Positions 22,516 to 31,128 of a stretch of 64,000 nucleotides of DNA are shown piece after piece. Position 1 is the first letter of the stretch; every line of letters begins with the position of its first letter. The stretch covers positions 161,383 to 225,382 of the forward strand of contig JBBIPC010000003.1 of NCBI GenBank assembly GCA_037443035.1, written 5' to 3'. The notes beneath the pieces were generated by a model. It did no database searches. It had not been told where the DNA came from and worked only from the letters and a program-made list of their open reading frames with translations. Both the position numbers and the translations under genes were made by a program. This DNA comes from Chthonomonadales bacterium (GTDB lineage Bacteria; Armatimonadota; Chthonomonadetes; Chthonomonadales; CAJBBX01).

Positions 22516-25500
22516 CTACGAGGTTCCCCGTGTCTCCTCCTCCACGAGGACGGGCCTCCAGCGCCATTCGCGCCCCAGGTAGGTTCGGTTCACCCAGCGC
22601 ACGAAGTCGTCCACGTACGTGTGCATGATGGGAATATCGAAGAGGCTGAGGATCGTGCCCATCGTTAGACCCCCGAGGACGGCCACCGCAAGGGGTTGAT
22701 AGGCGTCCAGACCAGTCTTGGGGAACGCTGCAACCGGAAACATGACGATGATGGTGATGCAGGAGGTCATGAGAATGGGCCGCAGCCGCTGTGGGCACGC
22801 ATTCGCCACCGCCTCGTCTCGTTCCACGCCGGCGTCGCGATAGCGCATGATCATATCGATCAGCAACACAGCGGTCGTGATATCCATACCTGTCAGCACG
22901 ATGATGCCCAGAATGGACACCGTGGAGAAGGCCTGCCCTGAGGCCCAGAGCGCGATGAACACGCCCGAGAGTTCCAAGGGCAGCGAAGCGACCATCTGCA
23001 GTGGTTGGAGGAAGCCCCGGAACTGGACGACGAGCACGAAGTACATGAGGATCAACGCCAGCGCCAGCCCGATCAGTAGCCTGCGGAAGCTGTCCATCAT
23101 CTGGGTCATGTCGCCCCGCATCTCCATACCATACCCGGGTGGGAAGTTCACCGGCGCGACACCAAGCTGCTCGTTCCCGCCATAGGCGTTGGCCACAAGG
23201 TTCATGACCACGTCCATGGACGGGAGGTTCCCAGGGCGGTAGTAGCCAGTAATGCCCATCACCCGACGGAGCCCATCGTGTTCGATGGCAGTGGGTGCTA
23301 CCGTCCTTTCTACTCGCGCCAAGCTCTCCAATGGTACCGCGCGGCCGTCCGAAGTGCTGATATACAGGTCGGCTAGATCCTCGGCAGTACGTCTTTGGCG
23401 CTCGTCGTAACGGATGGAGATCGTGTCCTGCCTGAGGTTGTCCAGTCGGAAGAACTCGTCGGCTAGACCGCCGCGCAGGGCATAGTAGGCTTGATCGGCA
23501 ATGTCCCGTGGCGTCAGACCCAGGCTCTGTGCACGGTCTCGGTCCACCTGTATCTTGTACGATGGGACGCCCATCGCCCACGTGGTGGCCGGTTGAAACA
23601 GCTCGGGCATCTTTTGCGCAGTCGTTAGCACCTGTCGGCCGATCCGGTCCAACTCCTGCAGATCAGGGCCGTAGATGTTCACATGTATGGGTGCCGCCGC
23701 CGTTGCCATGACGTCGGAGCCCATCTCCTTGATCTGGAGCCGCCGTATGCCCGGTATGGTCGCTAGGGCCTCTCGCTGCACCCCGTCTATCACCTGGAAG
23801 ATCGTACGGCGGCGCTTGTCTTTATCGCTCAGGGTCAGCATGAACGCAGCGGCGTTGGCGGCGGGCATTTGGTAGCCAGTAAAGTACGGGCTCCAGGTCT
23901 CGAACATGGACTCCGCTCCAACTTCGATACTGGCCTTCTCGATCTCTGGGTAGCGGAGCATGATCTCCTCGAGCTTGTGCACCGCCTTTGCCGTAGCGTC
24001 GAACGATGTGCCCGGCTGCATCTCTAGGACTCCGCTCGCCTGTCCGACGTCGGCTAGGGGCATCATCTCGGAGCCGATGAAGTAATAGAACGTAGACCCC
24101 ACGATCACTGTGGCAGCGATGCGGGAGAGGTTGGCGAAGCGATGCCGGAGCATCCACCGGACGGAACGGGCGTAGCCCGCCTCCATTCTATCGAGAACGC
24201 GCTGCACCGGGTCGAGGACCATGTACAGATGCCGTAGAACGGGCTTCTGACGATCCGCTCGCCGCTCCTCGTCATGCCGCAGCAGGTTCGCTGCCAGCAG
24301 CGCCGTGAGCGTGAACGAGACCAACATGGAGGCGACAAGCGCGAAGATCAATGGCCAGACCAGCTCGCGGAACATGGCCTCCGTGATACCGCCCGAGAAA
24401 AGAAGCGGCGAAAGCGCGATGACGACCATGGTCGTGGAGGCGATGACCGCCAACCGCACCTCAGCGATGCCGTCTATGGTGGCGGTCTTGGGATCTTTGC
24501 CCATTCGCAAGTGCCGCTCCACGGCGTGAATGTCGATGATGCTGTCGTCCACGAGCCGGCCAATGGAGAGCAACAGGCCCACGAGCGTGCCGCTGTTGAA
24601 CGTCATGCCGAAGGGGAGCATGAACAACACCGCCAGCGCCAGCGAAGTCGGGATGGTGATCAGGGAAATGAGCGTGCCGCGCCATTCGCCTAGGAAAAGG
24701 AGCACCGCGATCGCCGTCAGCAGAATGGCCAGACCAAGCTCGTGCCAGACGTTGTCGAAGAGAATGCCCACGAAATGTGCGTTGTCGTAGGCCACCTCGA
24801 AGCGAACGCCAGGGTTCTCGCGCTCCAACTCACGGATGATCTCCATGACTTTCGGCACCACGCGCGCCGAGCTAGCTCCGGGGTCCTGGATGACCGACAC
24901 GCCGATGGACGGCAGTACCTCCCCCTTGCCGCCCGGAGGATGGTTGAGGAATCTGTAGGCCGAGCGGCGCTCCCAGTGGCCATCGAACACGCGCGCCACG
25001 TCGCCCACGCGGATGATCTGCGGAGGCCCACTGCTATCGCTCGGGCTGCCTCCACCCGGTCGCGGTTCGGACTCCGCCGGCGCACCTGCCGTGCCCATGC
25101 CACCCATGGCTCCGGACCCCCCATCGGGTGCTGTGGCGCTGACAGAGGGGCGGGCCGTGCGGATCGGGTAGCGCCGCACGTCCTCGGGAGTTCGCGCTCG
25201 CGTATCCACGCGGACAATGCCCTCAGCCTCTCCGGTCGTGAGGTTGCCGGCTGGACGATTGATGCTCTGCCGATCTATGGCGGCCTTCACGTCTAGGATG
25301 GACAGTCCCCGTGCGGCCAGCTTGTCCCGGTCCACCACCACCTGGAGCTGACGGCGATAGCCGCCGAACGGTACGACCGAATACACGTTGTCCACGCGCT
25401 TGAGACGGTTCACGACCGCGTTATCGGCGAACTCGCGCAACCGCCTCAGATCCCATCCACTACCTGGATCTGCCCGAAGGCTGAAGGTGATGACTGGTAG

Positions 25501-25983
25501 GTTCAGTGGGTCAATGGGAACGACCCACGACGGCTTCAGATTAGCGCCTGTGGCTGGAAGGTTCGCCTGGACCACGTTCATGAGCGCCTGGACGTCGAAG
25601 ACCGCCTGCTTCATGTCGTACCCATAGTTGAACTCCAACGCGACGATGGAGAAGCCTTCTTGGGACGTTGACCTAATGTAGCGGACGCCACGGATGTGCA
25701 CAAGCTGCTCTTCGATGGGCTTGGTGATATTCAGCTCCATCTCCTCTGGTGATAGCCCCGGCATCATCGTCACGACGCCCACCATGGGGCTTTCCACATA
25801 CGGAGCGAACCGTCGCGGGATGACACGGGTGATGGCGAGGCCCGCCATGGCGATCACGACGATGTAGAAAGCAATGATCGCGTACGGGTGCTCGATGGAC
25901 CAGCGATGGATCATGTGCAGCGCCGTCAGACCACGTCCATGGGCGGCGCTGACTGAACGGCGGAGCGGTTCTGGGACTGTCAT
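22516..25983 (-). CDS. RND efflux transporter permease subunit (AcrB/CusA superfamily)
   Basis: PGLSPEEME..ITKPIEE, STSQEGFSIV, TLISLITIPTSL, GRLVDDSI, SFTLT, RLRPILMTS, PLAVAVLGGL; ATGA overlap with the MFP gene. Confidence 0.93.
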   Translation of the reverse strand: MTVPEPLRRSVSAAHGRGLTALHMIHRWSIEHPYAIIAFYIVVIAMAGLAITRVIPRRFAPYVESPMVGVVTMMPGLSPEEMELNITKPIEEQLVHIRGVRYIRSTSQEGFSIVALEFNYGYDMKQAVFDVQALMNVVQANLPATGANLKPSWVVPIDPLNLPVITFSLRADPGSGWDLRRLREFADNAVVNRLKRVDNVYSVVPFGGYRRQLQVVVDRDKLAARGLSILDVKAAIDRQSINRPAGNLTTGEAEGIVRVDTRARTPEDVRRYPIRTARPSVSATAPDGGSGAMGGMGTAGAPAESEPRPGGGSPSDSSGPPQIIRVGDVARVFDGHWERRSAYRFLNHPPGGKGEVLPSIGVSVIQDPGASSARVVPKVMEIIRELERENPGVRFEVAYDNAHFVGILFDNVWHELGLAILLTAIAVLLFLGEWRGTLISLITIPTSLALAVLFMLPFGMTFNSGTLVGLLLSIGRLVDDSIIDIHAVERHLRMGKDPKTATIDGIAEVRLAVIASTTMVVIALSPLLFSGGITEAMFRELVWPLIFALVASMLVSFTLTALLAANLLRHDEERRADRQKPVLRHLYMVLDPVQRVLDRMEAGYARSVRWMLRHRFANLSRIAATVIVGSTFYYFIGSEMMPLADVGQASGVLEMQPGTSFDATAKAVHKLEEIMLRYPEIEKASIEVGAESMFETWSPYFTGYQMPAANAAAFMLTLSDKDKRRRTIFQVIDGVQREALATIPGIRRLQIKEMGSDVMATAAAPIHVNIYGPDLQELDRIGRQVLTTAQKMPELFQPATTWAMGVPSYKIQVDRDRAQSLGLTPRDIADQAYYALRGGLADEFFRLDNLRQDTISIRYDERQRRTAEDLADLYISTSDGRAVPLESLARVERTVAPTAIEHDGLRRVMGITGYYRPGNLPSMDVVMNLVANAYGGNEQLGVAPVNFPPGYGMEMRGDMTQMMDSFRRLLIGLALALILMYFVLVVQFRGFLQPLQMVASLPLELSGVFIALWASGQAFSTVSILGIIVLTGMDITTAVLLIDMIMRYRDAGVERDEAVANACPQRLRPILMTSCITIIVMFPVAAFPKTGLDAYQPLAVAVLGGLTMGTILSLFDIPIMHTYVDDFVRWVNRTYLGREWRWRPVLVEEETRGTS

Positions 25984-28250
25984 CGAACCGTGTCCTTTCT
26001 CACCAGAGCCATCCCGCACTTAGGGCAACGACCCGGTGCGTCTGCCACAACCTCGGGATGCATAGGACACGTGTAGCGGGGTGCCGTAGTGTGTTGGTGG
26101 GTCGTCGCGGCTCCCGAGCGAGCACTCCCCGCCGGCATGGATCCCGCCGCAGGGCCAGTGGTGTCCACGACCTCGTCGCCATCGTGGAGCCCGGCCCAGC
26201 CTTTCACCACAACGCGGTCGCCTGCTTGGAGCCCTTCGATCACCTCGTAGAAGCGCTCATCATGGGCCCCCGTCCTTATCGGGACGCGCTCGACGGTGGC
26301 CGTCGGCCCCTGCTGCACGCGCCAGACGGTATGCTGCACCGAGCGACCCTCGACACCCGAAGCGGCGAGTGCCTCCTCCCGCACGGCCTCGGCAGGAATG
26401 CGGAGCGCACGCTGCCGCGACGCGACGACGATGCTCATGCGGATGGCTTCCCCCACTCTGAAGCGTCCGTCCGCATTGGGCCAGACCGCCTCCACCAGGG
26501 CCGTGCGTGTCGAACCGTCCACGTAGGGAGCGACGCTGGTGATGCGCGTCAGGACAGTCCGGTCCGGTTTCTCCGGCCTCCAGACGCGCACAGCGGCTCC
26601 TACGCGGACCAGAGGGAGATCTGCCTCGGAGACCCTTGCCTGAAGACGCACAGGCGTTAAGGGGACCATGCGAAGCACCGTTTGGCCAGCCGTCACGTAG
26701 ACACCGGGCGATATGCGGCGCTCGGTGATCACGCCGTCTGCCGTGGCTCGAATGATCGTGTAGCGCTCGGTCGTCTCGGCTCCCAGAAGCATAGCCCGCG
26801 CCTGCCGAACGCTCGCTTGCCTTGCTGCGGCTTGCCGGCGCGCCGTGTCGAGACCTGCTTCTGTCATCCGTAGGCTCTGAGCGGCTGAATCGTTGTCGGC
26901 TCGGGCTTGTTGCAGCCGGCTCGAGGCGGATTGCACGGCTGCCACGGCGCTACTCTGTGCCGCCTTCATCCTCCGTACCTCGGCTTCGGCCTCCTTGATG
27001 CCGGCTTCTGCGGCGGTAAGCGCAGCTCGTGCTCGGGCGGTCTCCGTCTGGGTCCGTTGGAGTTCTTCCAGCGAAACGACACCACGCGCTTTGAGGCGCT
27101 CCATCCGCGCGAGTTCCGCGTCCCAGTACGCAACGTCCGATGCAGCCGCCTGCTGGCTGGCTTTGGCGGCGGAGAGCTTTTCCGTAGCTGCAACCACAGC
27201 TTCCTGCGCTTCCGATGCTTCTGCACGCGCTTGCTCCAGCTCAGATCTTGCCGCGGCCAGAGCCGACTGTTTCGCCGCTGCATCGGCCCGAGCGCGCTCT
27301 ACGTCGGCCTGCACTCGGCGCACCTCCGAAGTAGCCGCTTGCGCTTCGAGCGTGGCCTGCTCCACCATGCCGGCACGTTCCGCGACGACCGGTTCCGTGG
27401 ACGAGCGGTCGAGCCGCAGCAGCACGTCGCCGCGTCTAACCCGGGTGCCGACATAGACCGGCATCTCGACGATCCAACCGCCTACCCGAGGAATAATGTC
27501 CTGCTCCACCCAGCCCGTGACCTGTCCAAGGTAGCTGACCGTCTGCTCGACCGGCCCGTACCCCGCCACGGCCGTCTCGACCGAGGCAACGCCCGGTGGA
27601 GGCGGCGTCTCCATCTCCATGGCCTGCGCTTCAATGGGCGTCATGGCGCCGGGGCGTCGCCAGTTCCGTACCGCGTACATCGCGATGGCGATGGCAAGGC
27701 CGAGCAAGAGGATACTGCCCCAGACGCCCGGCTTGGCCAGTTGCGACCACGGAATACGCTGGCCACTTCGCCGCATACCAATCCACGTGAGGATCGCAAG
27801 CGCGGCTCCTGCGAGGGCCACCAGGAGACCCAAGGTCAGGCCATGTCCTACGCCCTCGGCGGTGTTCATCCCCGTGGCGAGCTTCACCTGAGCGCGTCGC
27901 TGGCGGTCACCGGTGATGACGGTGATATCCGCGACGTAGTCTCCAGCCATGGCAAAGACCGCCGGTGCTTCGTAGACACCAGGCGCATCGGGAAGCGGTC
28001 GGGCCGTCTGTTCCTTCTCGCCCATGTCCATAGCCGGCATGCGTACGAACACGCGGACAGTGGCACCCGTGACCGGCTGTCCGTTCTCCTTCAGCTCCAC
28101 CCGGACCTTGGCCTTGCCAACTGCGATGATTGGCGGATCGGTGCGCACGATGACTGTAAGCCCGTCTGCGGTGGTGCGCACCGGGTCTGCTGCGGCCAGC
28201 AGAGGCACGAACGTCAACAGAGCGCTGAGATATGCTGCCACGCGGTTCAT
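25980..28250 (-). CDS. RND membrane-fusion protein with an N-terminal YtkA/FixH-like domain and a C-terminal heavy-metal-binding domain
   Basis: Signal peptide; PVTGATV..RMPAMDMG...GVYEA..VFAMAGDY; two TM helices; lipoyl halves PRVGGWI...GDVL and IRATADGVI; long coiled coil; GLQAGDRVV; YTCPMHPEVVADAPGRCPKCGMALV. Confidence 0.9.
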   Translation of the reverse strand: MNRVAAYLSALLTFVPLLAAADPVRTTADGLTVIVRTDPPIIAVGKAKVRVELKENGQPVTGATVRVFVRMPAMDMGEKEQTARPLPDAPGVYEAPAVFAMAGDYVADITVITGDRQRRAQVKLATGMNTAEGVGHGLTLGLLVALAGAALAILTWIGMRRSGQRIPWSQLAKPGVWGSILLLGLAIAIAMYAVRNWRRPGAMTPIEAQAMEMETPPPPGVASVETAVAGYGPVEQTVSYLGQVTGWVEQDIIPRVGGWIVEMPVYVGTRVRRGDVLLRLDRSSTEPVVAERAGMVEQATLEAQAATSEVRRVQADVERARADAAAKQSALAAARSELEQARAEASEAQEAVVAATEKLSAAKASQQAAASDVAYWDAELARMERLKARGVVSLEELQRTQTETARARAALTAAEAGIKEAEAEVRRMKAAQSSAVAAVQSASSRLQQARADNDSAAQSLRMTEAGLDTARRQAAARQASVRQARAMLLGAETTERYTIIRATADGVITERRISPGVYVTAGQTVLRMVPLTPVRLQARVSEADLPLVRVGAAVRVWRPEKPDRTVLTRITSVAPYVDGSTRTALVEAVWPNADGRFRVGEAIRMSIVVASRQRALRIPAEAVREEALAASGVEGRSVQHTVWRVQQGPTATVERVPIRTGAHDERFYEVIEGLQAGDRVVVKGWAGLHDGDEVVDTTGPAAGSMPAGSARSGAATTHQHTTAPRYTCPMHPEVVADAPGRCPKCGMALVRKDTVR

Positions 28251-29599
28251 GGCTTCTCTCCTTCTCTTGTCGCGGATGTTGCCCCACCGGAGGCGCCGTC
28301 CGGGCTGGCGCCCAGGACGCGCTCCAGCCGCACCAGCGCCATCTCGTGGTCGAACATGGATCGAGCCAAGGCCAGTTCGGCCTCGCGGACTGCCGCGAGA
28401 GCATCGAGCTCCTCCACGAGAATGCTCTTCTGGTTCTGCACGCGTTCGCTGTAAACAGTGTAGGACGCGCGCGCCGCGTTCACTCCTGCCTGCGCCGCCT
28501 CGACAGCACTCTGCGCAGCGACCATGTCGAACCACGCCTTTCGGATACCCTCTTCGACACTCAGCGATGTTGCGGTTGTTCGCTCGCGAGATGCTTGCTC
28601 CTCTGCATCCGCCATCTTACGCATGCTCCGCCTGCGGCCCCCGTCGTAGAGCGGCCATGAGGCCGCGAGGCCGACGGCCGACATACCTGTGCCGCGCATG
28701 CCCCGCGAGCCACGCACGTCTCCCATGGCCATGGCATACACCTGGACCGACTGCTCCCCGCGTGCTATGGCCGCCTGCGCAGCAGCAGACTCGCTGGAAG
28801 CCCGGGCGATCCGAAGCGCCGGAGCATCCTTGCGGCCGGCGGCAAGAGCTGCTTCGAGGGTCCAAGCTGGCTTCGTGAGGGATAGCTCCTCCGTAAGCTC
28901 CAGGCGAGTGCCCGGGGACAGACCCATAACCGCAGCAAGCTCCACCAGACTTTTCGCTCGCTCGGCCTCGGCCAACGCGATATCCCTGCTGGCAGCCATG
29001 GCTTCCGAACGAGCCCGAAGATACTGAGCCTCGATGCCCTTGCCTTCTTGCCAGAGCGCCCGGGCGTTCTCGGCCATTGCCGATGCCGCGTCGTACTGCG
29101 CCTTGGCCACGCGCAGCGTCGCTTCAGCCAACAGCACCTTCAGGTAGGCTTCTTTCGTGGCGGCGCTGACATCCGCCCGGACACGTGCCAGGTCAGCCTC
29201 GGCCTCGACAAGCATGGCACGGGCCCGGCGGATGGACGCCTGTACGATGCCTCCTGTGTACACAGGCACCATGGCGACTGCCTGCAGCGTCCCGCCACCG
29301 TCGGCTCCCACCCTCCCCCTGGTGGCAGGTTCCGCCGCAGGAGGCGATTCCATCACCGCTTCGTCGCTCGCTGCTGCTCCGTACGCCGATAGCGTCGCTT
29401 GGAGCCCCGCCGCCGCGCGAGCTGCCGCCAGCCCCGAACGAGCGGCTTCGACGCGTGCCCGCGCCGCCGCGACACTGGGGCTGCGTGCATAAGCTTGTGC
29501 CACCGCCTGCGCCATGGTCAAGCGCTGTGGCGTTTGCGCGTCTGTCCGGATCGCCAGCAAAGCAACCCAGACCCATACGATGTGAGTTGTACGAACCAT
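28247..29599 (-). CDS. TolC-family outer membrane efflux protein
   Basis: Signal peptide; LTMAQAVAQAYARSP, PVYTGG and PLYDGG repeats, long Ala-rich helices; first gene of a TolC-MFP-RND operon. Confidence 0.88.
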   Translation of the reverse strand: MVRTTHIVWVWVALLAIRTDAQTPQRLTMAQAVAQAYARSPSVAAARARVEAARSGLAAARAAAGLQATLSAYGAAASDEAVMESPPAAEPATRGRVGADGGGTLQAVAMVPVYTGGIVQASIRRARAMLVEAEADLARVRADVSAATKEAYLKVLLAEATLRVAKAQYDAASAMAENARALWQEGKGIEAQYLRARSEAMAASRDIALAEAERAKSLVELAAVMGLSPGTRLELTEELSLTKPAWTLEAALAAGRKDAPALRIARASSESAAAQAAIARGEQSVQVYAMAMGDVRGSRGMRGTGMSAVGLAASWPLYDGGRRRSMRKMADAEEQASRERTTATSLSVEEGIRKAWFDMVAAQSAVEAAQAGVNAARASYTVYSERVQNQKSILVEELDALAAVREAELALARSMFDHEMALVRLERVLGASPDGASGGATSATREGEKP

Positions 29600-29717
29600 T
29601 CCCTTCTCCTACTTGCGCTCATGCATCCTGGCGATGCGCCTGGTATGGGATGTAACGGAGCTTACGCCTCGGCCTCAGCTTCTCGGCAACGAGAGTTAGC
29701 GAGAAAGCCGGGATCGG

Positions 29718-30152
29718 TTACGAGAAGAAGGGCGGTGCGCGCGGACGGCGATGAAGAGGTGGAGGGCAGTTCGGCGGATGGACGTCGGCGGGATCGGCGC
29801 AGGTTGCCGAGGGCGGCGTCACGATCCATTCCGTTCCGGTTAGGGGCGCTACCGGTGTCGGATGGAACGTTATCGAGTTTGGCAGGGGCGAGTCCGGCAC
29901 GGTGACCCGCGCCTGGCACGACATGCCGCTGGACACTGTGGGCTGCGACCGGTCCGGTTGCACACTGCCTGGGCAGCATGCCGAGGCCGGCTCGACCACT
30001 ACCGTCCGTCGGGCGCCGTGCGAGCAGTAGAAGTCGCACGGCATTCCATCCGTGCAGAACCAACCGACGTGCGGAAACGCCGCGGCCAGTGCCATGAGTG
30101 CTACGCCCCGCGCGAAGATCCGCCTAAGCCGGTTGTGGACGATGGCTGCCAT
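29718..30152 (-). CDS. Cys-rich leader protein ending in RAPP (DUF2946/CruR-like candidate ribosome-arrest peptide)
   Basis: N-terminal basic plus hydrophobic segment, C-X5-C-X3-C and CC clusters, Pro-rich tail ending RPRAPPFFS; 118 nt upstream of tolC on the same strand. Confidence 0.7.
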   Translation of the reverse strand: MAAIVHNRLRRIFARGVALMALAAAFPHVGWFCTDGMPCDFYCSHGARRTVVVEPASACCPGSVQPDRSQPTVSSGMSCQARVTVPDSPLPNSITFHPTPVAPLTGTEWIVTPPSATCADPADVHPPNCPPPLHRRPRAPPFFS

Positions 30153-30162
30153 TGTTACGAAC

Positions 30163-30189
30163 TACGGCAGCGGTCTGCGAATCGTTTCC
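30163..30189 (-). promoter_or_regulatory. Putative ECF-sigma promoter (GGAAAC-N17-CGTA) for the leader/RND operon
   Basis: Fills the 37-nt gap between the ABC gene stop and the leader ATG; CGTA ends 10 nt before the ATG; no SD, so a near-leaderless transcript. Confidence 0.55.
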
Positions 30190-31128
30190 TCATCGGTTCG
30201 CGCCGCTGCTCGCCCGAGCGACGAGCGCTCGGAACGCCGTCCACAGATCTCCGCGGGCGGCATAAATCACCCGGACACCGCCCGCAGGATGCCGGAGAAG
30301 ATGTGCCGCTACCGCTGTCGAATCTGCACCAGCGATGCGGAGTCCCTGTGGCGTCTCCACGACCTCGACATCGAAGATTCCACGCAGAGTCCGCTGGACC
30401 GTCGAGGGGTCGGCTGCCTCCACCGTGATGCTGTCGGGAGCGTAATCGCGGACGAGACCTGCCGTATCCTCCAAGGCCAGCACGTGTCCCCGGTGGAGGA
30501 TGAGCACGCGGTCCGAACGCTCCGCCTGCCTACTGCTAGCGGTAGCGTGCAGCACTGCCATACCGTCCGCAGCACGCCGACCGTCGAGGAAGCTCCGGAA
30601 CCGTTCCGCCGCGGGCTCAGGCACAGACCCGAGCACATCATCGAGAAGCAACACTGGCGGCTCGGCGGCAATCGCGAACACAAGCTCCAGCATGATCCGT
30701 TGTACTGGTGTCGTGTCCCGTTCAGGCATCTCGCGGAGGTCCTGCAAGCCCATGATCTCGAGGGCTGCTTCGGCACGTCCTTCCCTCCGCGTCTTTGGCG
30801 TGCCATAGGCGGCAAGACGCTGAGTCAGGCGCTGAAGCACGGTGAGACGGCCAGGGGGAGCGAGCAACTGCCGAATGAAGAGCGGGCACACTGCACGTAC
30901 GTCACCAGCTTCGGGACGCAAGTCGCCAGCTACGAGGCGGAGCAGGACAGACTTGCCGGCCCCGGGAGGTCCGAATGCCGTCACCCACTGCCCCTCCTCC
31001 ACGCGGAGCGAGAGGTCCTGGAACCCGCCCTCGCCAGCGAATCGGAGCGTTGCCCCACGGACTTCTACAGGCGGTTTCCCGTATGCGCCGGCCGACTCGT
31101 GGGAGGTGTGCTCGATGTTACCAGCCAA
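30190..31128 (-). CDS. ABC-type ATP-binding protein with degenerate catalytic motifs
   Basis: Walker A GPPGAGKS; signature position reads TTPVQ; Walker B LLLDD; no His at the switch (HATAS); DrrA-like C-terminal extension. Confidence 0.75.
   Translation of the reverse strand: MAGNIEHTSHESAGAYGKPPVEVRGATLRFAGEGGFQDLSLRVEEGQWVTAFGPPGAGKSVLLRLVAGDLRPEAGDVRAVCPLFIRQLLAPPGRLTVLQRLTQRLAAYGTPKTRREGRAEAALEIMGLQDLREMPERDTTPVQRIMLELVFAIAAEPPVLLLDDVLGSVPEPAAERFRSFLDGRRAADGMAVLHATASSRQAERSDRVLILHRGHVLALEDTAGLVRDYAPDSITVEAADPSTVQRTLRGIFDVEVVETPQGLRIAGADSTAVAAHLLRHPAGGVRVIYAARGDLWTAFRALVARASSGANR

Follow-up and report, generated by a model that had tools for sequence, protein, structure and literature searches.

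A stretch of 64,000 nucleotides (nt) from a Chthonomonadales bacterium of the phylum Armatimonadota (assembly GCA_037443035.1, contig JBBIPC010000003.1, positions 161,383 to 225,382; hereafter the window) carries on its minus strand a short leader open reading frame (ORF), followed by three genes of an efflux pump. These encode an outer-membrane efflux protein (OEP) of the TolC family, a membrane-fusion protein (MFP) and a resistance-nodulation-division (RND) permease, and a spacer of 118 nt separates the leader from the OEP gene (Table 1). The leader peptide ends shortly after an RAPP motif. An earlier note on this DNA had claimed that the codons following RAPP pair with the OEP gene's Shine-Dalgarno (SD) sequence, and that a ribosome stalled at RAPP would cover them and switch translation of the pump genes on. 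We followed up this claim by RNA folding at the locus and by comparison with homologous loci in related genomes.

The leader begins with a signal-like helix, which AlphaFold2 places at residues 2-24 when given the 42-sequence family alignment. Only this helix and a short pair of strands are modelled with confidence (mean pLDDT 68.8, pTM 0.34). The peptide (P0001) has no Pfam match at E ≤ 0.01 and none in NCBIfam, and six members of its family have no Pfam match at E ≤ 10. A whole-genome search with DUF2946 (PF11162) at E ≤ 10 matched two other places and not the leader, and a near-length single-sequence search of 5.8 billion proteins returned nothing at E ≤ 0.1. The CxxxC spacing in the leader resembles the copper-binding motif described for CutF in the available text of PMC9973294, and from this likeness we infer only that the Cys motif may bind metal. 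Upstream of the leader ATG (30153-30192, minus strand) there is no recognisable SD sequence, and the ATG lies 38 nt past the stop of an ABC-ATPase-like gene (30190-31128). An SD is also missing before several homologous leaders, one of which has TATACT immediately 5' of its ATG. It is possible that leader initiation is leaderless or otherwise independent of an SD.

On the mRNA, the anti-SD decamer CCCUUCUUCU and the SD decamer AGGAGAAGGG form a 10-bp helix with a single G-U pair, exactly where the earlier note had put it, and the SD decamer ends 1 nt before the AUG of the OEP gene (29599-29597). The note had proposed to look for this helix in the low-energy ensemble, and it is present in both the minimum free energy (MFE) structure and the centroid of a 181-nt fold. 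When longer stretches (442, 692 and 1012 nt) are folded with the partition function, the MFE structure contains every one of the 10 bp, and the pairing has a probability of 0.97. Over shorter contexts the probability that the two decamers pair ranges from 0.18 to 0.98, a spread that we attribute to competition from an upstream stretch of Pro codons, CCCUCCACCUCUUC, which has no conserved position in relatives. RNAduplex widens the pairing so that 29735-29719 faces 29619-29595. The helix closes a loop of 112 nt (68-313 nt in relatives), which is effectively shortened by two hairpins inside it; one of them, GCUUUCUCG/CGAGAAGC, had been seen earlier as an inverted repeat and is a bulged hairpin in the MFE structure. 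The 16S rRNA gene was not found in the source assembly, so the anti-SD tail was taken from two relatives of the same order, whose 16S 3' ends read ...CACCUCCUUUCU. At E ≤ 1 no Rfam family was found at the locus, and a promoter and terminator scan of the spacer found no promoter-like site and no intrinsic terminator. When windows along the leader mRNA were compared for pairing with the OEP initiation region, the one after RAPP was the best of 112, and none beyond ±12 nt was better. A gapless helix of at least 10 bp also arises in 26 of 756 non-cognate pairings between loci. Taken alone, this single locus is suggestive and lies only weakly above chance; it is the comparison across the family that places the helix beyond chance.

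Homologues of the leader were recovered by six-frame searches of relatives. A profile of six leader sequences (alignment A1) matched 47 places in 40 of the 68 genomes of the class. In a phylum sample of 401 genomes, with nine candidates scored per genome, the profile matched in 32, one of which lies outside the order. The sequence R[A/G/S]PP falls within the last 10 residues of 43 of the 46 recovered ORFs and is followed by just 1-6 residues to the C-terminus (37 RAPP, 4 RGPP and 2 RSPP); the remaining three (L049, L069 and L074) have no such C-terminal motif. The rest of the leader's C-terminal half is variable while R[A/G/S]PP is kept. In an alignment of 42 leaders (A3), C33, G36, C39, C59, C60, C79, R138, P140 and P141 are invariant, and W31, C43 and P127 are nearly so. 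All 42 leaders have a basic n-region and a hydrophobic core, and many have an A-x-A-like site before WxC. One subfamily (L040, L041, L042, L045, L046, L048, L052, L058 and L063; alignment A2) keeps the longer sequence PQRFLRPxxGR[A/S]PP, similar in this to the extended arrest sequences with which SecM-type peptides contact the tunnel.

These relatives allowed us to ask whether each leader pairs best with its own downstream gene. Downstream starts were picked automatically as the first ATG, GTG or TTG with an SD duplex of -5.5 kcal/mol or lower and an ORF of at least 60 aa. A start was found in 39 of 43 loci, and a hydrophobicity filter kept the 29 with a signal- or transmembrane-like N-terminus and rejected 10. 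The start of one locus (L034) was shifted by hand to match a near-identical relative, and the locus was then removed as a duplicate, leaving 28 non-identical loci. We paired a zone of 24 nt, counted from the first Pro (P-site) codon of the motif to +23, with the initiation region from -22 to +4 of the downstream gene. Cognate pairs averaged -15.2 kcal/mol, compared to -10.7 kcal/mol for permuted pairs, and none of 100,000 permutations reached the cognate mean (z -9.4; for the unfiltered 39 picks z -9.8, none of 20,000), although the relatives are kin to one another and these z-scores therefore overstate the significance. Among ten window offsets between -120 and +36, strong cognate specificity appeared at offset 0 only: the overlapping offset +12 gave z -3.8, offset -36 gave a marginal z -2.5, and the others stayed at |z| of 2.0 or below. 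The zone was the best of about 100-180 windows in 14 of the 28 loci, and no more than two windows were better in 17.

The pairing is conserved through changes in sequence. No pair among the 28 loci is as much as 80% identical in both arms, at most positions of the helix several kinds of base pair are seen, and relatives form helices as different as CGCCUCCUGA:UCAGGAGGUG, CCUGUAGUC:GACUACAGG and UCUCCUAGAU:AUCUAGGAGA. In relatives the helix typically spans about +5 to +20, and the stop codon lies at +15 from the first P-site nt, exactly three codons after RAPP, in 22 of the 28. In 17 loci every base of the stop codon is paired (UGA:UCA in nine, UAA:UUA in four, UAG:CUA in two and pairings containing G-U in two). 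Covariation in homologous loci had been proposed earlier as a check on the helix, and it is borne out: the pairing is kept with different sequences and compensatory changes, and at this position only.

A ribosome covers its mRNA from about -12 to +15 relative to the first nt of the P site. With the first Pro codon of RAPP in the P site, the anti-SD decamer (+3 to +12) is fully inside this footprint, which lends computational support to the earlier claim that stalling at RAPP places the ribosome over the anti-SD, and the helix of the relatives is mostly covered as well. We modelled the stall by blocking the footprint and calculating the free energy needed to open the initiation region from -15 to +5. 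This quantity replaced the mean probability that the SD is unpaired, a poor read-out because weak alternative partners recapture the SD. The models describe equilibrium and ignore trailing ribosomes and kinetics. Over the 28 loci, the median opening cost fell from 14.0 to 7.0 kcal/mol upon stalling when pairs spanning the ribosome were allowed, and from 14.0 to 6.6 kcal/mol when only the 3' part was folded. The drop was at least 3 kcal in 20 and 22 of the 28 loci, respectively. Footprint-constrained folding, another check proposed in the earlier note, thus halves the median opening cost over the family, but the effect is blunted at this locus.

Taken together, these results suggest that a stall-dependent unmasking switch of the CutF and SecM type heads a translationally coupled OEP-MFP-RND operon; judging by sequence and folding, we put the probability of this reading at roughly three in four. 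The leader would be a secreted, Cys-rich arrest peptide that is exported co-translationally. A ribosome would pause at RAPP with the first Pro codon in its P site and cover the next ~15 nt, which form the 5' arm of the long-range helix. The 3' arm, comprising the SD and AUG of the first pump gene, would then be freed or held far more weakly, 30S subunits could load at the OEP site, and the MFP and RND genes, coupled through ATGA overlaps, would follow. Once the arrest is released, the ribosome would translate three more codons, terminate and leave, allowing the helix to re-form and block initiation. Release would presumably be brought about by a pulling force on the nascent chain as it is exported, and tuned by what the six-Cys periplasmic part encounters there, be it metal or a thiol-redox state. 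That RAPP arrests the ribosome of this organism, and that the length of the arrest is regulated, are likewise things we infer, as are the nature and the sign of the signal. The conserved signal peptide and six Cys suggest that how long the ribosome pauses depends on some condition sensed in the periplasm; the adaptor domains and downstream genes point to metal, and the redoxin and LTXXQ neighbours described below keep a thiol-redox signal as an alternative. A sign like that of CutF, in which stress prolongs the stall, would make physiological sense for an efflux pump.

Several observations, in addition to the kinship among relatives already mentioned, weigh against this reading. At this locus the whole 181-nt fold has a z-score of -0.30. 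Shuffled zones match the duplex energy in 894 of 5000 cases and shuffled initiation regions in 1742 of 5000, and 95 of 5000 shuffled zones yield a gapless helix of at least 10 bp. The modelled stall lowers the opening cost here only from 13.1 to 11.8 kcal/mol when pairs across the ribosome are allowed, compared to 6.0 kcal/mol when they are disallowed, and the mean probability that the SD is unpaired with the footprint blocked reaches only 0.23-0.47. We attribute this small gain to recapture of the SD by the upstream Pro-codon stretch or by the 5' arm of the intergenic hairpin. In stalled-state folds with at least 40 nt of upstream context, CCCUCCACCUCUUC captures the SD with a probability of 0.71-0.77; with the upstream sequence absent or covered, the SD pairs with the intergenic region with a probability of 0.25-0.65. 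Across the family, pairing is weak or non-specific in 6 to 11 of the 28 loci. These include L037, L042, L063 and L072, with energies of -6.7 to -10.2 kcal/mol and 63-138 better windows, and L038, L047 and L045, with many better windows. All of these named loci have spacers of 122-313 nt, and their starts may be miscalled or they may act in another way. A scan that dispensed with gene calls, taking the zone's best RNAduplex partner within 425 nt downstream and asking for a start codon after it, succeeded for 24 of 42 cognate zones and 177 of 336 foreign ones; we dropped it as non-discriminating. Coding sequence of high GC content abounds in G-rich partners and in frames opened by GTG or TTG, and at this locus the best partner fell inside the OEP coding region. 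Finally, the helix also covers the stop codon in most loci, so any terminating ribosome would open it and the RNA data do not require an arrest.

This last point is the foundation of plain translational coupling, in which the helix is opened by whichever ribosome translates the final codons of the leader or terminates there, RAPP does no more than slow that ribosome or has some other role, and no environmental signal is read. The helix sets the SD beside the leader stop codon, and with the stop inside the helix in 17 of 28 loci and the helix at about +5 to +20, termination would suffice to melt it. A pure coupling device, however, would have no need for a signal peptide and six invariant Cys, and it does not account for an R[A/G/S]PP kept in 43 of 46 ORFs amid a variable C-terminal half or for a stop fixed three codons after RAPP in 22 of 28 loci. 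Arrest at RAPP is also experimentally established for other peptides, as described in the available text of PMC12992588 and PMC10951233. We therefore consider coupling by itself unlikely. Chance and base composition offer a different account: C- and U-rich codons after Pro-rich motifs would pair with G- and A-rich initiation regions, and the helix would be functionless here. The shuffles of the zone at this locus lean that way, non-cognate pairs still reach the permuted mean given above, and the SD finds partners of roughly equal strength in two further C-rich segments of this mRNA. Yet the permutations separate cognate from non-cognate pairs, the effect does not extend beyond the window after RAPP, and covariation is seen in positions flanking the SD core, the stop codon among them. 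At the family level compositional chance is disfavoured by this pattern, and we regard it as very improbable.

Control might also run through Rho, as in CruR, with the stalled ribosome shielding the transcript, release leading to Rho-dependent termination in the 118-nt spacer, and the SD pairing being secondary. The available text of PMC9426467 describes this mode of action for CruR, an RAPP upstream ORF (uORF) that encodes a conserved Cys motif and has a spacer of 162 nt, and the leader coding sequence here is richer in C than in G (C/G 1.28). The spacer, however, has a C/G of 1.00 and is predicted to be highly structured, both atypical of a rut site, and Rho control gives no reason to expect that the codons after RAPP would pair with the downstream SD at one particular position and covary with it. 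Rho as the principal output thus appears improbable to us. It could coexist with an SD switch, since leaving the OEP gene untranslated would in itself make RNA accessible to Rho.

Regulation at the first initiation site could extend over the entire operon. The stop of the OEP gene overlaps the MFP ATG (ATGA, 28250-28247) and the MFP stop overlaps the in-frame RND ATG (ATGA, 25983-25980), so the three pump genes look translationally coupled. The OEP start agrees with those of homologues at L003 and L032, in which a signal peptide is followed by (R/D)LTL(A/S)xAV; a related-loci search with the OEP protein as query returned no relatives. The MFP is unusually long, at about 756 aa. The CzcB/NccB and CusB models match it below their cut-offs, and its domain content is that of a CusB-type adaptor with metal-binding domains. 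The RND permease, with a divergent N-terminal third, scores 553 bits with the multidrug-type RND_permease_2 model versus 328.7 bits with CusA/CzcA (TIGR00914), all below curated cut-offs, and on these NCBIfam scores it does not belong to the CusA/CzcA subfamily. Despite the metal-type adaptor, metal is thus only a possible substrate of the pump.

Table 1. Features of the leader and efflux operon (positions are those of the window)
Feature	Position	Strand	Details
Leader ORF	30152-29718	minus	144 aa; stop 29720-29718; C-terminus ...HRRPRAPPFFS, then stop
WxCxDGxPCxxxC motif, codons W31-C43 (WFCTDGMPCDFYC)	30024-30062	minus	conserved; directly after signal-like segment
Upstream anti-SD-like stretch CCCUCCACCUCUUC	29766-29753	minus	Pro-rich codons; outside modelled footprint
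Modelled footprint of ribosome stalled at RAPP	29720-29747	minus	hard constraint in folds
RAPP codons CGC GCA CCG CCC	29741-29730	minus	residues 138-141 of 144; then UUC UUC UCG UAA
Predicted stall codons	CCG 29735-29733 (P site); CCC 29732-29730 (A site)	minus	sites assigned from the available text of PMC10951233 and PMC12992588
Anti-SD CCCUUCUUCU	29732-29723	minus	second Pro, Phe, Phe, first base of Ser; +3 to +12 from first P-site nt
Intergenic hairpin GCUUUCUCG (29708-29700) / CGAGAAGC (29685-29678)	29678-29708	minus	1-nt bulge; 5' arm anti-SD-like
Second small hairpin CCAGGCG...CGCCAGG	29627-29643	minus	between first hairpin and SD; in MFE structure
SD region AGGAGAAGGG of OEP gene	29610-29601	minus	core AGGAG; 6-nt spacer to AUG; A at 29600
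OEP/TolC-family outer-membrane efflux protein	28247-29599	minus	450 aa; signal peptide; Pfam OEP E 4.8e-45
MFP	25980-28250	minus	YtkA-like N-terminal, CusB-type HlyD_D23 core, C-terminal HMBD
RND permease	22516-25983	minus	1167-aa reading; Pfam ACR_tran mainly residues 334-1136

Downstream of the 28 leaders we found OEP genes at six loci, this one counted, and CusB-type adaptors at eight. A YtkA-like protein, a redoxin, an LTXXQ protein and a MetA-like barrel follow at one locus each, and ten further downstream genes encode short or truncated secreted proteins without a Pfam match. Six genomes (G005, G018, G044, G048, G063 and G064) have two profile matches at separate loci, which suggests duplication of the cassette or its recruitment to different operons. 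The second match in another genome, G017, is weak (E 7.6e-4) and contains a stop. A related-loci search with the leader of one relative returned four loci, two of them weak actinobacterial tblastn matches (L079 and L080; 33-37% identity over 57 residues) that are possibly distant Cys-motif relatives or chance. At L035 (in G005) and L036 (in G018), the downstream frame is ambiguous: a signal-peptide-like frame preceded by GTG-TGA seems to shift into an ORF of ~190 aa with an outer-membrane-barrel-like sequence. This arrangement may reflect an assembly error or a different layout, and both loci were dropped by the N-terminal filter.

A broader and more tentative reading, to which we give somewhat less than even odds, is that this lineage-restricted, six-Cys, non-DUF2946 family of the Chthonomonadales is a portable sensor-switch. 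Its anti-SD would lie in the three codons and the stop after RAPP and would have co-evolved, over loops of 68-313 nt, with the initiation sites of at least six kinds of envelope gene: OEP, CusB-like adaptors, YtkA-like, redoxin, LTXXQ and small secreted proteins. If so, this would be the first demonstration, at the level of covariation, of metal-type RAPP uORFs acting on translation initiation and not via Rho, and the conserved Cys pattern would point to the sensing of periplasmic thiol or copper status. To our knowledge, post-transcriptional sensing of the periplasm through the nascent chain, as by CutF and CruR, has been demonstrated in few proteobacterial cases, although bioinformatic surveys point to thousands of uORFs of this sort. 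The gene that they most often neighbour encodes an RND outer-membrane component, and for this group we know of no mechanism that has been tested. The approximately 28 loci compared here amount to natural compensatory mutation experiments, which indicate that what a ribosome at RAPP brings about is the unmasking of the SD. The family fixes the geometry, with the stop three codons past RAPP and the helix centred on the stop, and from this a concrete and easily testable rule would follow for recognising and building switches of this kind. Their range would also widen to a diderm phylum that has received little study and to leaders that current domain models miss.

How the leader relates to known arrest peptides can be judged from the published systems. 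The earlier note had described unmasking of a downstream SD by stalling as established for several peptides, ApdA and ApdP among them. The available text of PMC10987492 states it for SecM and demonstrates it for a single secDF2 leader, uDF_RQH, where disruptive mutations tested both the dependence on stalling and the SD-masking stem that the stalled ribosome opens; ApdA and ApdP, however, are merely "thought to regulate" in that of PMC10951233. SecM-secA and uDF_RQH resemble the locus described here in that an exported arrest peptide is coupled to an SD-sequestering stem disrupted by the stalled ribosome. Two features of this type are found here: the SD is paired in the ensemble with a partner under the stalled ribosome, and the pairing is conserved through compensatory change. 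SecM-type peptides, in contrast, monitor the Sec/YidC machinery that they regulate, whereas here the target is an efflux pump and the six-Cys domain suggests a chemical signal. ApdA and ApdP, whose RAPP arrest (available text of PMC7897499 and PMC10951233) defines the footprint placement used here, lie upstream of secDF and have no detectable similarity to the leader outside RAPP.

The closest precedents, neither named in the earlier note, are CruR and CutF. CruR (Bordetella pertussis bp2923) acts through Rho-dependent termination, as the consulted part of PMC9426467 describes, and its RAPP arrest is demonstrated in vitro in that of PMC12992588, which also surveys RAPP and RGPP small proteins upstream of metal genes. 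That available text makes no mention of efflux, RND, stem-loop or Armatimonad. By the criteria for RAPP/RGPP uORFs (Fujiwara 2025), the leader would appear to qualify, with RAPP near its C-terminus and a predicted N-terminal localisation signal. Like the leader, CruR has a signal peptide, a conserved Cys motif, a C-terminal RAPP, a metal-related operon and a long structured spacer. It differs in being a DUF2946 member with a CXXC motif and a Rho output, whereas the conserved feature here is the SD pairing. Copper relieves the CruR arrest and turns an uptake system off; with an efflux target, the opposite sign would make sense. A full-text literature search, with supplementary lists outside its scope, found no paper on this leader family or on an anti-SD in post-RAPP codons.

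CutF unmasks an SD in response to periplasmic copper, according to the available text of PMC9973294. The same source reports a rule-based survey of 5,334 CutF-like proteins; the gene found most often downstream of them is that of an RND-associated OEP (CusC/CzcC/SilC), and CusB, CusA and CusF occur there as well. Under the rules of that survey the leader counts as CutF-like, with 144 aa, PP at 140-141, a signal-like N-terminus and an OEP 118 nt downstream; many of its relatives, at 146-173 aa, are beyond the length rule. In the CutF-cutO pair of Rhodobacter capsulatus (PMC9973294 and 10.1101/2025.02.05.636593, available text), as here, the uORF product is small, Sec-exported and cis-acting, with a CxxxC-type motif and a C-terminal Pro-rich stall motif, and an mRNA structure that shields the downstream SD is opened during stalling. 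Nonetheless, the two differ in several respects. CutF is a DUF2946 member, whereas the DUF2946 hidden Markov model does not match this leader. The CutF element is a stem-loop between cutF and cutO, whereas here the 5' arm is formed by the three codons after RAPP, inside the ribosome footprint. CutF controls a multicopper oxidase and not an efflux operon, and the available CutF text (PMC9973294) does not mention the Armatimonadota, the phylum to which this Chthonomonadales leader belongs. The principle of unmasking is thus already published, and we conclude, with good support, that the leader is a new example, and possibly a new sequence family, of a known switch.

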